This document shows, piece by piece, positions 27,200-31,270 of a DNA stretch of 64,000 nucleotides. Both the position numbers and the translations under genes were made by a program. The stretch lies in contig CAVPSB010000019.1 in NCBI GenBank assembly GCA_963708025.1, positions 294,156 through 358,155 of the forward strand. Reading direction: 5' to 3'. This DNA comes from an uncultured Candidatus Rokubacteria bacterium. Lineage in GTDB: Bacteria; Methylomirabilota; Methylomirabilia; Rokubacteriales; DASRDR01. Position 1 is the first letter of the stretch. The number at the start of each line of letters is the position of its first letter. The notes under the pieces were generated by a model that was given only the letters and a program-made list of their open reading frames with translations, ran no database searches and had not been told where the DNA came from.

Positions 27200-28099
27200 T
27201 CAGCCCTTCCGGGTGGCCAGCACGACGCCGGCGATGACCACGAGGGCGCCGGCCAGGTGGACCCAGGTCAGCGGCTCGTCGAGGAAGAGCCAGGACAGCG
27301 CGATGACCTCGAACGGGAGCAGGTTGACGGTGAGCGACGCCACCGGGGCCGAGACGACCCGGATGCCCCGGTAGAACCAGACGTGGGAGAGCGTGACCAG
27401 GGTGGCCGCGTACAGGACGGCGAGCACGGTGGTCGCGGTGAAGGCGGGCAGGGCGAGCCAGGGCCGCTCGAGCAGGGCCAGCGGGACCAGGAACACGACC
27501 GAGACGACGTAGGAGCCGGTGGTCACCACCACCGGGGAGAACTGCCGGGCGACCTGCCGGGCGTAGACCGAGTACACGGCCCAGATTCCCTGGCCGGCCA
27601 GGATGAAGAAGTCGCCGGGATAGAGGTCGAGGTCCAGGAGCGCCCGGACCGACCCCCGGGTGACCGTGAGCACCACGCCGAGGGACGAGAGCACGATGCC
27701 CGCCAGGTTGGTCCGCGTCAGCCGCTCCCGGAGCCAGTAGGCCGAGAGCAGGGCGACCCAGATGGGGCCCGAGGCCCCCAGGATGGCCGCGTTGACCGCC
27801 AGGGTCCGGGCCAGGCCGTAGTACCAGAGCGTGGTGTTGGTCACCAGCCCGGTGAGCGACAGGATGGCGAAGACCCGGAGGTCGGGCAGGCTGACCGACG
27901 GCCAGGTGTGGTAGCTGAAGCGGACGTACCAGAGGAGCACGATGAGGGCGAGGACGGCCCGGAGGGCGGTGAGGGTCAGCGGGCCAATGACCTGGAGGGC
28001 CAGCTTGCCGGCCAGGAAGTTGCCGGCCCAGATGACGCTGATCAGGAGGAGCAACCCGTAGGCTTGCTCCTCGCGAAGGTCCCGGTCAGGCTTCGCCAT
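27200..28099 (-). CDS. DMT/EamA family transporter
   Basis: IWAGNFLAGK, LRERL, WAVYSVY, NLLPF...FLDEPL. Confidence 0.88.
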   Translation of the reverse strand: MAKPDRDLREEQAYGLLLLISVIWAGNFLAGKLALQVIGPLTLTALRAVLALIVLLWYVRFSYHTWPSVSLPDLRVFAILSLTGLVTNTTLWYYGLARTLAVNAAILGASGPIWVALLSAYWLRERLTRTNLAGIVLSSLGVVLTVTRGSVRALLDLDLYPGDFFILAGQGIWAVYSVYARQVARQFSPVVVTTGSYVVSVVFLVPLALLERPWLALPAFTATTVLAVLYAATLVTLSHVWFYRGIRVVSAPVASLTVNLLPFEVIALSWLFLDEPLTWVHLAGALVVIAGVVLATRKG

Positions 28100-28141
28100 C
28101 CCTCGTCCAAGCCGGCCGGCGGCTTCGGGTCATCAAAGGCG

Positions 28142-28169
28142 CGGAGGCCCCGACGAAGCGGGGCCTCCG
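28142..28169 (-). terminator. Perfect 11-bp hairpin, putative terminator of the microprotein transcript
   Basis: CGGAGGCCCCG-N6-CGGGGCCTCCG; only a short T run follows on the minus strand. Confidence 0.55.
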
Positions 28170-28191
28170 AGTCGGACTGGGTAACCGCGCG

Positions 28192-28227
28192 CTACTTCTT
28201 CTTCTTGGCCGCCTTCTTCTTCGCCAC
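28192..28227 (-). CDS. 11-aa lysine-rich microprotein MAKKKAAKKKK
   Basis: GTG GCG AAG AAG AAG GCG GCC AAG AAG AAG AAG TAG; strong SD GGAGGGGGGGTGA 6 nt upstream; own promoter and downstream hairpin. Confidence 0.65.
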   Translation of the reverse strand: MAKKKAAKKKK

Positions 28228-28302
28228 CGAGCCTCACCCCCCCTCCGTCGTCGCGATCCCTCTCGAGGCGGCGCCCTGGACGCCACGCCTCTTCTCGGCG
28301 CG

Positions 28303-28331
28303 AACGTAGGACAGGCGGCGAACCCTGTCAA
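28303..28331 (-). promoter_or_regulatory. Near-consensus sigma70 promoter upstream of the microprotein
   Basis: Minus strand TTGACA-N17-TACGTT. Confidence 0.75.
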
Positions 28332-28439
28332 GCGGAAAATGCAACGGGCGGGGGGCCCGGGGCGCTCTGGCCCCCAGATGTTGTAGAGACCACCGCTTCC
28401 TCGGGTCCGATCCTCGCGGGAAACGTGGCTCGGGAAGCG

Positions 28440-28468
28440 TTGACACACCCCCACCAGGATGCTACGGT
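28440..28468 (+). promoter_or_regulatory. sigma70 promoter of the radical SAM gene
   Basis: TTGACA-N17-TACGGT with TGn extension. Confidence 0.72.
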
Positions 28469-28526
28469 GGGCTCCGCACACCGACACGGCACATCGCCGG
28501 ACCGCACTATCGTCAGGGAGGTCGGG

Positions 28527-30359
28527 ATGAAGCGAAGCATCAGGAAGATTGTGTTCGTCGAGCCCAAGTCGACCCACCTCCACATCTACAGTCGCGTGTG
28601 CATCCCCCGTCTGGGCTCGGTGCTGCTGGGCACGATCATGCGCAACAAGGGCTACGACGTGCGCGTCTACATCGAGGACATCGGCCCGGTCGACATGAAC
28701 GAGGTGATGAGCGCCGACTTCGTCGGGATCTCCACGCTCACCTCCACGGCGCCCCAGTCGTACCGGCTGGCCGACCGGGTCCGGGCGGCCGGCATCCCGG
28801 TGGCGATCGGCGGGACCCACGTCACCTTCCTCCCCAACGAAGGCCTCCAGCACGCCGACTTCGTGGTGCGGGGCGAGGGGGAGTTCGCCTTCCAGGAGCT
28901 GGTCGACGCCGTCCAGGCTGGCGAGGGATTCGAGAAGGTCCAGAACCTCTCCTACCTCCAGGACGGCACGCCGGTGCACGTCCCGGAGCGGCCGAAGATC
29001 GCGAACCTCGACGTGAACCCGATCCCCGACTACCCGCTGATCCACGGCTGGAAGCCGGGCGGCGTCGTCTCGGTGGCGACCTCCCGCGGCTGCCCCTTCT
29101 CGTGCACCTTCTGCTCGGTGCCCGGCATGTACGGGCACGCCTTCCGGACCCACAGCATCGACCGGGTCATGGAGGAGCTGCGGCTCCACCGGGACTCCGC
29201 CTACATCTTCTTCGCCGACGACATCTTCACGGCGAACAAGAAGCGGGTGAAGGAGTTGCTCTCCCGGATGATCGCGGAAGGGATCACGCCCGAGTGGGGG
29301 GCGCAGGTCCGGAGCGAGACCGTCGACGACCCCGAGCTGCTCAAGCTCATGCGCGACTCCGGCTGCTTCAACGTCTACGTCGGCTTCGAGTCGATCAACC
29401 CGCGGACGCTGAAGCTCTTCCAGAAGAAGCAGGACGTTGACAAGATCAACCGGGCGATCGACCGCTTTCACGAGCACAACATCCGGATCCACGGCATGTT
29501 CGTGGTGGGCTCCGACGAGGACGACGTCGAGACGATCTACGCGACCGCCGACTTCGCCAAGAAGCGGAAGATCGACTCCGTCCAGTTCATGATCCTCACC
29601 CCGATCCCTGGCTCGCCCGACTGGGACACGCTCTACGACAAGGGCAACAAGTACGTCTTCAACACCGACTGGGAGGTCTACGACGGCCATCACGCCGTTC
29701 ACCACCCGCGGCGGATGTCGCCCTACGAGCTGCAGGTGGCCGCCGTGGACGCGATGGCCAAGTTCTACTCCTGGCCCCAGATCATCCGAGGCTTCTTCGG
29801 GAAGGACCGGAAGGACAAGTACTACGCGATGATCCGCTACTGGGGCAAGAAGATGATCAGGGAGTGGTGGAAGCAGAACGGCGAGTACGTCGAGCGCCTG
29901 AAGCGCGAGCTGTACTCGGAGGCCCAGCGGCTCAAGCCCACGGGCTGGCGCCGGGTGGGCGTGCCCGAGGTCTTCATGAAGGACAAGCTCGGCAGCCTCC
30001 TCAAGGCGTTCCTGACCGAGCTGGGCGTGGAGGTGGTCTCGGTCGCCGCCGACGCCCCGGCCGGGAGCTGGCGCCAGAGCTTCGACGCCCTCGTCATGCC
30101 CCACTTCACGGGGCTGTCCAAGCGGGTCGCCAAGGGGCGCGAGGAGCTGGCCCAGACGCTCCAGGAGCTCCAGGCCCAGATCCAGGCCCAGCTCGACCGG
30201 CTGCCCCAGGTGCCGTTCCCGCTCGGGGACGAGCCCGGTCCGCTCTACGAGCCCTTCGCGAAGATCGGCCTCCTGTTCACCTCCAACCTGGAGCGGGTGC
30301 GCCAGGCCTATCGGAAAGCGGGAGCGGCAGAAGGCCTCTGGGAGCCAGTGGAGGCCTAG
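28527..30359 (+). CDS. B12-binding radical SAM protein with C-terminal extension
   Basis: Cobalamin-binding domain (GGTHVT, VVRGEGE); SRGCPFSCTFC (CX3CX2C); FADDIF; VGFES; SD GGAGG. Confidence 0.9.
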   Translation: MKRSIRKIVFVEPKSTHLHIYSRVCIPRLGSVLLGTIMRNKGYDVRVYIEDIGPVDMNEVMSADFVGISTLTSTAPQSYRLADRVRAAGIPVAIGGTHVTFLPNEGLQHADFVVRGEGEFAFQELVDAVQAGEGFEKVQNLSYLQDGTPVHVPERPKIANLDVNPIPDYPLIHGWKPGGVVSVATSRGCPFSCTFCSVPGMYGHAFRTHSIDRVMEELRLHRDSAYIFFADDIFTANKKRVKELLSRMIAEGITPEWGAQVRSETVDDPELLKLMRDSGCFNVYVGFESINPRTLKLFQKKQDVDKINRAIDRFHEHNIRIHGMFVVGSDEDDVETIYATADFAKKRKIDSVQFMILTPIPGSPDWDTLYDKGNKYVFNTDWEVYDGHHAVHHPRRMSPYELQVAAVDAMAKFYSWPQIIRGFFGKDRKDKYYAMIRYWGKKMIREWWKQNGEYVERLKRELYSEAQRLKPTGWRRVGVPEVFMKDKLGSLLKAFLTELGVEVVSVAADAPAGSWRQSFDALVMPHFTGLSKRVAKGREELAQTLQELQAQIQAQLDRLPQVPFPLGDEPGPLYEPFAKIGLLFTSNLERVRQAYRKAGAAEGLWEPVEA

Positions 30360-30382
30360 CCTCCGCGCTGTCTCTTTCCGCT

Positions 30383-30417
30383 CCCTCTCCCTCCCAGGGA
30401 GAGGGTTGGGGTGAGGG
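30383..30417 (+). repeat. CCCTCTCCC...GGGAGAGGG palindromic repeat family C (also 38881-38917; related 36853-36882)
   Basis: CCCTCTCCC-N-GGGAGAGGG-N3-GGGTGAGGG found twice after stop codons. Confidence 0.7.
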
Positions 30418-30564
30418 TCTCTGGCCTCGGAGTCCGTGAACCGATGCCGGGGCTCCGATTCCCACCAGCCCATCGGCTGCCCGCAACCCTCTGGCTCAGG
30501 CCACGCGGCCGCGGTGTTCCACTTCGAGCCGCGGCTTTGCCGCGGCCTCCGAGGGGGGGGCCTC

Positions 30565-30587
30565 GGGGGGGTCTTCCGAACCCCCCC
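30565..30587. repeat. GGGGGTCTTCCGA..CCCCC hairpin family D (also 16879-16897, 26572-26590 reverse, 35597-35619)
   Basis: Same TCTTCCGA loop with G/C stem at four intergenic sites next to stop codons. Confidence 0.7.
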
Positions 30588-30595
30588 GGAGAATC

Positions 30596-31270
30596 TCAGA
30601 GGGGGCGGGTGGCGAACTCCCGGTTCAGCGCCAGGCCTTTCCGGCAGAGGGGACAGTCCTCCGGAGCGTAGGTCGGGAAGTCCCGCTTCACGAGGCTGAA
30701 GACCGGCCTTCCCAGATCGACCTTCGAGTTCCGCTGCCAGAGGCAGGCGATCCCGGTCACCGTGCCCCCCTGGCGCTCGACCAGCTCGATCAGGAGCTTG
30801 AGCGTCTCGCCGGTCGTGATCAGGTCCTCGACGATCAGCACCTTGGTGCCCCGTCCGATGATCCGCTCGAACTCGTCGGGAAGCCGCACGCGACGCTGGG
30901 GCCCGGTCGCGCCCCCCACGCCCTTGGTGGCGTAGACGAGCAGCGGCCGGCCGGGGAGGGCGCGCGCGACGCAGTGGGCGAGGATCAGCGCCCCCAGCCC
31001 GGTCGAGAGGACGACGTCGGTCGGCCACTCGGCGAACTGCTTGGCGATGACGACGCCGAGCCCCTCGGTGAACGACGGCTCGGTCGTCACCAGGGCCTTG
31101 TCGATGAACTCGGGGGCGTGGTGGCCGGAGGGCAGGAGGAAATGATCGCTCCCGCGGTACGCCCCGGTCCGGCGCAGGATCTCCAGGTGGATCTTCTCGC
31201 GGACCTCCGCGTCGGCCAGGGTGGAGACTCGCGGGGCGCGGGGCGGGGTGGCCGGCTTCTCCCGGGACAT
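30596..31270 (-). CDS. Orotate phosphoribosyltransferase-like PRTase
   Basis: HFLLPSGHH, PRPP motif VLIVEDLITTGET, C-terminal CPLC; PyrE-like but divergent. Confidence 0.75.
   Translation of the reverse strand: MSREKPATPPRAPRVSTLADAEVREKIHLEILRRTGAYRGSDHFLLPSGHHAPEFIDKALVTTEPSFTEGLGVVIAKQFAEWPTDVVLSTGLGALILAHCVARALPGRPLLVYATKGVGGATGPQRRVRLPDEFERIIGRGTKVLIVEDLITTGETLKLLIELVERQGGTVTGIACLWQRNSKVDLGRPVFSLVKRDFPTYAPEDCPLCRKGLALNREFATRPL

Follow-up and report, generated by a model that had tools for sequence, protein, structure and literature searches.

The window analyzed here is a stretch of 64,000 nucleotides from an uncultured Candidatus Rokubacteria bacterium (order Rokubacteriales). The element considered is a short transcription unit on its minus strand (28142..28345), located between an EamA/DMT transporter gene and a divergently oriented gene for a B12-binding radical SAM enzyme (Table 1). 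This unit is a strongly conserved, unannotated, stand-alone gene for an 11-residue oligolysine peptide, and many soil bacteria carry it. It consists of a promoter with an A+T-rich stretch upstream, a leader, an extended Shine–Dalgarno (SD) site, an open reading frame (ORF), and a hairpin. The ORF reads GTG GCG AAG AAG AAG GCG GCC AAG AAG AAG AAG TAG (28227..28192), and lysine is specified by 8 of its 11 codons. SD sites pair with the 3′ end of 16S rRNA, and removal of the initial methionine before alanine is expected, which would probably give AKKKAAKKKK.

Table 1. Features of the oligolysine unit and of its surroundings (positions in the window).
Feature	Position	Strand	Basis or remark
UP-element-like A+T-rich stretch (GTTGCATTTTCCGC)	28332..28345	−	directly 5′ of the −35 hexamer; putative UP role
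−35 hexamer TTGACA	28326..28331	−	read from the sequence; kept in relatives
−10 hexamer TACGTT	28303..28308	−	17-nt spacer from −35
5′ leader, ~69 nt, local stem close to the 5′ end	28228..28296	−	start point predicted, near 28296
Extended SD site GGAGGGGGGGTGA	28234..28246	−	GGAGGTGA in relatives
11-codon ORF, GTG to TAG, MAKKKAAKKKK	28192..28227	−	read from the sequence; rarity; conservation
G+C-rich hairpin, 11 perfect bp, 6-nt loop, then CGCCTTTG	28142..28169	−	likely terminator; weak T tract
EamA/DMT transporter gene, flank, outside the unit	27200..28099	−	Pfam EamA, 1.1e-40
B12-binding radical SAM gene, divergent flank	28527..30359	+	Pfam B12-binding, Radical_SAM
Spurious 980-codon frame	28086..31028	−	crosses the unit; antisense to the radical SAM gene
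Spurious 350-codon frame	27257..28309	+	crosses the unit; antisense to the EamA gene

The preliminary description of this stretch had set out, on the minus strand, a TTGACA-N17-TACGTT promoter, a strong SD site, a GTG-started ORF encoding MAKKKAAKKKK, a TAG stop codon, and an 11-bp hairpin; all of these elements are present, and the promoter is kept in relatives. The hairpin (28169..28142) begins 22 nt past the stop codon of the ORF, and folds as good as its own (−25.4 kcal/mol, z −3.3) were obtained in 0 of 200 shuffles. The consensus promoter scan did not call the promoter, TACGTT agreeing with TATAAT at 3 of 6 positions, and the consensus terminator scan did not call the hairpin, the T tract after its stem having three T only; consequently, both elements were accepted on their conservation. 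Folding of the 169-nt transcript revealed structure no greater than in shuffles (z +0.57), with the ORF region predicted to be unpaired and with a single hairpin; no alternative pairing involving the end of the ORF occurred in the predicted fold. The leader stem GAGGCG/CGCCTC described earlier does exist, but the transcript as a whole has no excess structure, and the leader proved to be the least conserved part of the unit. A scan of 27500-29000 against Rfam 15 (E up to 10) returned chance-level matches only, and the best match at the unit (16.8 bits vs. a gathering score of 50) covered the hairpin alone.

The window genome (8,166,589 bp, 71.2% G+C) was scanned for ORFs no longer than 30 codons and composed of ≥55% lysine, and four were found, all with an SD site, the window ORF being one of them. 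The other three stand in tandem on contig C25 (G000:C25:176525-176785) and encode MATKKKAKKKK, MAKKKAAKKKK, and MAKKKAAKKKKK; each is preceded by an SD site of the GGGAGGTGAGA type, and a hairpin lies 3′ of two of the three. The gene is present in several copies per genome. When the intergenic region was used as a BLAST query, the part comprising the SD site and the ORF gave multiple matches in the closest relatives, frequently two in tandem. A degenerate pattern of the ORF was found in 164 of the 183 genomes of the order and in 51 of its 58 genera, including 66 of the 77 high-quality genomes (≥90% complete, ≤5% contaminated), while the reversed pattern used as a control was found in 0 of 183. 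Three genomes flagged as unpublished (G038, G045, and G176) are included in the order count and all match; the count is 161 of 180 without them, and no conclusion depends on unpublished genomes by themselves. Among the 19 pattern-negative genomes, six, selected for having BLAST matches, were inspected, and all six carry SD-preceded variants such as MKKKAAKKKKK and MAKKKAAKKKRK. Across the phylum, the pattern was present in 89 of the 135 genomes of at least 90% completeness (85 of 131 without the unpublished-flagged G038, G045, G176, and G214, all of which match); the order's two main families contributed 12 of 13 and 73 of 83, and the remaining families 3 of 38.

According to tblastn searches with the window's own neighboring proteins, 51 loci of the order were sorted into two genomic contexts. 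Context A combines 26 loci from two families, the window's own (17 loci) and a sister family (9 loci), and these 26 orthologues were thus chosen by synteny rather than by the peptide. All of them keep a start codon (GTG in 20, ATG in 6) and an in-frame stop codon (TAG in 17, TAA in 9), the ORF is 11 codons long at 14 loci and one codon longer at the other 12, and GGTGA is located 4–7 nt ahead of the start codon in every case. The synonymous changes are GCG/GCC/GCA, AAG/AAA, and ACG/ACC, and the amino acid changes are limited to alanine to threonine or glycine and lysine to arginine. Arginine was reached in three lineages through AGG, CGC, and CGG, and this use of three codons points to selection on charge, not on bases. 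A search of related genomes for a kept SD site and ORF had been proposed in the preliminary description; in these syntenic orthologues, the frame is intact and the changes are synonymous or conservative.

Conservation extends to the flanking signals. In the alignment of the 17 loci of the window's family, CTTGACA is invariant, and the −10 hexamer keeps T1, A2, and T6 (TAGCAT in most loci, otherwise TACCTT or TAACGT, and TACGTT in the window). The A+T-rich stretch upstream is retained as GCATTTT or GGATTTT in these 17 loci and in the nine of the sister family; the latter nine have GGATTTT, TTGACA, a spacer of ~17 nt, and TAGCAT. Conserved within the 17 aligned loci are GGAGGTGA, the ORF, and the stem of the hairpin; the hairpin loop varies, and so does the leader, which differs in sequence and length. 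At one locus (L021), one pair of the hairpin is changed on both sides, from G-C to A-T. Throughout the window genome, TTGACA-N16-18-TANNNT occurs at 190 sites, only 11 of which also have a T-rich stretch upstream. These 11 include the promoter of the window unit and that of the AbiEi_2-like gene ahead of the three tandem copies, and others among them precede tRNA, cold-shock-domain, mraZ, DAHP-synthase, FBPase_3, GHMP-kinase, HTH_3, and TPR-domain genes. The window promoter thus fits what would be a strong promoter, judging from its sequence elements. At three of these 11 promoters (G000:C31:376269, L207; C31:373540, L208; C44:98855, L206), which precede a tRNA gene, a DAHP synthase gene, and a cold-shock gene, TTTAGCCC is located shortly past the −10 hexamer, and TTTTAGCCC is present in two of the three; TTTAGCCC could be a start-region motif shared by these promoters.

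It might be supposed that such an ORF arose by chance or is a functionless repeat fragment, given that it is very short, of low complexity, and below the reach of any annotation pipeline. The occurrence of the pattern in 164 of 183 genomes against none for the reversed control, the synteny at two loci across the order, and the retention of promoter, SD site, start codon, and stop codon contradict this explanation, which is regarded as extremely improbable.

The same pattern was used to scan species-representative genomes, which yielded at least 120 loci with at least 123 matches, a sample rather than a census. The start codon is where it is expected in all of the 123 listed matches (ATG 115, TTG 5, GTG 3); 103 of them stop within 16 codons, 13 within 17–30 codons, and the remaining 7 exceed this length or reach the locus boundary without a stop. 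Among the 103 listed tiny ORFs, 97 have an SD-like site, and the stop codons are TAA (84) and TAG (19), with no TGA. The pattern itself demanded neither the start codon nor the early stop, the SD site, or the choice of stop codon. By a hand count of the record names, 59 of the listed loci are labelled as Acidobacteriota or its subgroups, 19 as Methylomirabilota or Rokubacteria, 13 as archaea (mostly DPANN), and 29 as others. The Rokubacteria-labelled records carry the same SD site and ORF as the window, typical Acidobacteriota forms are MATKKKAKKKKH and MATKKKAAKKKKH, and archaeal loci with 30–40% G+C have MAKKKAAKKKKR, coded mostly by AAA. In the order around one Acidobacteriaceae-labelled genome, the strict pattern was found in 13 of 101 evenly drawn genomes, and the gene is therefore patchy there, or more varied than the pattern permits.

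The architecture of the unit is also the same in other phyla. Among the listed matches, 101 tiny ORFs had full flanks, and TTGAC[AT] was located 36–150 nt upstream of 63 of them, as compared with 5 in the reverse complement of the same 101 stretches; a hairpin of at least 8 bp was found within 90 nt downstream in 79 of 101, the figure for shuffled flanks being 14. In two Acidobacteriota-labelled loci, a T-rich stretch is followed in turn by TTGAC, a leader, an SD site, the ORF, and a canonical terminator formed by a hairpin and a T-run. Both the multi-copy nature of the gene and its spread over several phyla were missed in the preliminary description. At one archaeal locus (L193; genome G189, contig C43), a second short ORF follows 11 nt after the oligolysine stop codon; its product begins with MAKKKKTTKKKSSCC and has a lysine run and a cysteine tail.

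In the wider set of ORFs, the share of AAA among lysine codons was 0.03 in loci with at least 60% G+C, 0.32 in the middle range, and 0.43 in loci with less than 45% G+C; the terminal histidine was encoded by CAC (44) or CAT (9), and threonine by ACC (36), ACG (14), or ACA (1). From the AAA share, the histidine codons, and the AAA-rich archaeal ORFs, it was concluded that the bases shift with genome composition and the peptide is preserved. These data bear on the possibility that the act of translation or the RNA itself matters and the peptide is a by-product. The transcript would then be a small RNA that combines a very strong ribosome-binding site with an unstructured, purine-rich segment; it would titrate or sense 30S subunits or lysyl-tRNA, or act by base pairing as a regulatory RNA stabilized by translation. 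The unusually long SD site (GGAGGTGA, in some loci GGAGGTGAT), the unpaired state predicted for the ORF region, the near invariance of the bases of the ORF in the order, and the tandem copies, which would multiply the binding sites, are in line with such a role. It is nevertheless an unlikely one, because the peptide is retained as the bases change (AAG to AAA in A+T-rich genomes), lysine is replaced by arginine through CGC and CGG as well as AGG, the terminal histidine is kept with both codons, and the start and stop codons are always kept; moreover, there is neither an Rfam match nor excess structure.

The genomic contexts provide evidence on two other interpretations. In context A, the micro-ORF and the radical SAM gene point away from each other in 26 of 26 loci. 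In the window's family, an EamA gene lies 3′ of the ORF in 17 of 17 loci; in the sister family, no EamA gene was found within ~1.5 kb in any of nine loci, and the ORF faces the 3′ end of nrdR in convergent orientation. Context B combines 25 loci in which one to three tandem micro-ORFs follow a gene for a protein of 349 residues and are convergent with rpmB in 24 loci (L027 and L032 belong to unpublished genomes; with these two set aside, rpmB was found in 23 of 23); EamA was not found in any of the 25. Consequently, the conserved partner is never the downstream gene of the same transcript. The preliminary description had considered a lysine-sensing leader peptide that governs read-through into the EamA/DMT gene, a suggestion favored by the lysine codons (8 of 11), by the hairpin between the ORF and EamA, and by the same-strand position of EamA throughout the window's family (17 loci). 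It was not upheld: the absence of EamA from the stretches searched in 9 of 9 sister-family loci and 25 of 25 tandem-type loci, and of any constant downstream partner, removes it as a role of the family. In addition, the Acidobacteriota-labelled units end in canonical terminators, the hairpin lies 22 nt past the stop codon with no alternative pairing predicted, and the promoter and the ORF are kept while the leader is not. Contradicted as a general role, attenuation of this kind is considered very improbable.

The constant radical SAM neighbor of context A brings in a different possibility, namely, that the peptide is the substrate of this divergently encoded B12-binding enzyme and thus a minimal precursor of a ribosomally synthesized and post-translationally modified peptide (RiPP). 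The seven-codon mccA gene offers a comparison for a minimal natural-product precursor. The radical SAM gene of the window lies under every NCBIfam equivalog cut-off, the best matches being HpnJ, BchE, and PhpK-type models. Its divergent position in all 26 loci of two families and the presence of RiPP C-methyltransferase-type models among these matches, far under the cut-offs, speak for this possibility, yet the enzyme class matches enzymes of hopanoid, lipid, and chlorophyll pathways equally well. Furthermore, the window's enzyme was found in 0 of 25 tandem-type loci in a search for that enzyme only, and no radical SAM gene was found in twelve Rokubacteria-type loci (Pfam), six Acidobacteriota-labelled loci, or seven archaeal loci. 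Among the ORFs scanned at 22-37 kb of the window, there was no peptidase, transporter, or recognition-element gene, and 11 residues leave no leader–core layout. A precursor role is therefore quite improbable, though somewhat less so than the attenuator.

The gene is independent of any one neighbor. Beyond the transporter gene, the window contains nrdR, and the neighbors within its 22-37 kb region are rpiB, glyA, nrdR, a phosphoribosyltransferase gene, and a TsaD-family gene. The two long frames that cross the unit (Table 1) were judged spurious since they are antisense to Pfam-supported genes in DNA of 71% G+C; both are high-G+C artefacts and could mislead gene callers. The 349-residue protein of context B has weak AbiEi_2 and winged-helix matches, and the pairing of this AbiEi_2-like gene with the micro-ORFs in 25 of 25 tandem-type loci suggests one operon. 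At G000:C25:175336-176790 (L002 and L028), the AbiEi_2-like gene has its own promoter with a T-rich stretch and TTGACA, and the three tandem ORFs come after it within ~75 nt. The neighborhood was also considered as a guide to function and was found uninformative, the neighbors varying by lineage. In Acidobacteriota-labelled loci, the neighbors are a MerR gene or a pair of nuclease-helicase and thiolase genes. In four Acidobacteriota-type loci (L179, L181, L182, and L186), a same-strand MerR-family gene lies past the terminator, and YggX-like and ferritin-like genes are near two of the four. In three of the seven archaeal loci (L187, L188, and L192; DPANN), the oligolysine ORF is located ~140 nt after a same-strand gene for a class II aminoacyl-tRNA synthetase; the ribosome-binding site of the ORF is of the GAGGTGA type, and its tail is T-rich.

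Taken together with the composition of the product, the features of the unit make it reasonably probable that it is an independent and probably highly expressed micro-gene encoding an oligolysine polycation binding RNA or DNA. The sigma-70-type promoter with its A+T-rich upstream stretch would give a transcript of roughly 150 nt, the extended SD site would load ribosomes on the 11-codon ORF, and the G+C-rich hairpin would end the unit. The product would be a short soluble polycation with eight lysines. With eight lysines in ten or eleven residues, binding to nucleic acid backbones is expected, and, by its composition alone, the peptide may bind RNA or DNA through their phosphate backbones. It could occupy an rRNA pocket in the manner of bL37, eL41, and bTHX, or it could serve as a nucleoid or RNA counter-ion, akin to a genetically encoded polyamine. 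The layout of the peptide is kept, with three lysines, one or two small residues, and four or five lysines, and a C-terminal histidine is fixed in Acidobacteriota; this fixed layout and the terminal histidine suggest that there may be a defined binding site, not charge alone. It is possible, as a tentative extension judged distinctly less probable than the above, that the unit belongs to a widespread class of independently transcribed genes of 10–14 codons that escape every annotation pipeline. The class would comprise genes of Acidobacteriota and of bacteria akin to Rokubacteria, and similar sequences exist in further bacterial phyla and among DPANN archaea. Such genes would encode the smallest ribosomal or nucleoid component discovered so far or a polyamine-like counter-ion, and a high dosage would be provided by strong promoters and tandem copies.

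Several observations weigh against the reading of the gene as a highly expressed source of a nucleic acid-binding polycation. Within the G+C-rich order, the ORF is nearly base-invariant, and its coding signature rests on few substitutions; the search pattern fixes the first and second codon positions, and the wider tallies come from ORFs selected with this peptide pattern. The sequence is of low complexity, and its counterparts in archaea and other phyla may have arisen by convergence instead of common descent. With respect to expression, assembled contigs of all four RNA libraries (X17-X20) carry units of the oligolysine family, but they match the ORF only and then diverge into other SD sites and flanks, from which it follows that they come from other loci and organisms. 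The 167-base bin with the ORF had summed depths of 4201, 409, 1645, and 93 in X17-X20, with the two adjacent bins below 4, and single contigs with tandem copies had depths of 68–236 in run X17; these depths pool many organisms, may include DNA carry-over, and are unsuited to the ranking of genes, and uncovered parts of the window carry no information. The depths give a weak hint that family members are present in RNA preparations. Of the highly expressed polycationic peptide proposed in the preliminary description, the independent unit is well supported by conservation, wobble variation, synteny, and copy number, whereas the support for high expression is weak.

The ribosomal variant of the polycation reading meets objections of its own. 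Ribosomal protein genes are usually single-copy and located in ribosomal operons. The oligolysine gene occupies two loci with up to three tandem copies, and its sole ribosomal neighbor, rpmB, is convergent and not co-transcribed, which counts against a ribosomal role. Seven longer relatives of 20–26 residues had no matches in NCBIfam or Pfam, and one of the seven, which was compared with PDB, had none there. Besides copy number and genomic setting, the failure of these longer relatives to match any known family speaks against a ribosomal role. The idea that the peptide stands in for a missing basic component was rejected for this genome, which has matches for HU (4), spermidine-synthase-like genes (4), bS21 (1), and bL36 (1), and this too tells against the polycation reading.

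The known systems nearest to the oligolysine peptide are tiny basic ribosomal proteins (bL37, bS22, bTHX, and eL41), with which it shares the traits of being short, strongly basic, and separately encoded. Protein bL37 is a 24-residue actinobacterial ribosomal protein found by cryo-electron microscopy and buried in an rRNA pocket (PMC5876184). Like the oligolysine peptide, it is tiny, very basic, and lineage-restricted, and it had been overlooked by annotation until a structure was obtained. In contrast to the oligolysine peptide, it is over twice as long and has a helix and a loop, whereas the oligolysine gene is multi-copy and is known here from sequence alone. Tiny basic ribosomal proteins such as bL37 are the best precedent for the possible nature of the peptide. 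Protein eL41 and the Thermus protein bTHX have about 25–27 residues and are arginine-rich, with specific motifs. Both are short and polybasic, as is the oligolysine peptide, and fill rRNA cavities or bridges, while the latter has 10–14 residues and consists of lysine and alanine only. Protein eL41 has been termed the smallest ribosomal protein (PMC13485352).

Two further groups resemble the oligolysine unit in part. The very short ORF, the enrichment in codons for one amino acid, and the hairpin that follows are reminiscent of attenuator leader peptides, for example in the his, thr, and phe operons; unlike these, the oligolysine unit has no conserved regulated downstream gene and no predicted alternative structures, and it has its own promoter and terminator. 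Histone-H1-like bacterial proteins are rich in lysine and alanine and have tens to hundreds of residues with many repeats, and long examples of this kind were found among the pattern matches (L075, L123, and L172). The oligolysine peptide is similar to them in composition, in the MA(K)KKKA N-terminus, and in plausible binding to DNA through lysine charges, whereas the oligolysine family stops after one KKK-A-KKKK unit in 103 of the 123 listed matches.

A literature search with peptide strings and concepts, which covered sources other than subscription journals and preprint supplements, found no such gene. A large survey of small bacterial ORFs covered the range of 15–70 codons (PMC11188072). 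The 15-codon floor of this survey may explain why an 11-codon gene went unnoticed. Genes this short lie under the floor of gene callers and of small-ORF surveys, and a core gene of an entire order could thereby escape notice. Almost all genomes of the order retain the gene, which occupies two constant positions and is frequently tandem; this implies a housekeeping role for a peptide consisting of hardly more than eight positive charges. Acidobacteriota is a phylum with cultured members, and the presence of the same units in Acidobacteriota-labelled genomes makes the question directly testable. If the peptide is located on the ribosome or the nucleoid, it would be a new component of machinery thought to be fully catalogued; as a free polycation, it would amount to a polyamine equivalent synthesized by the ribosome.

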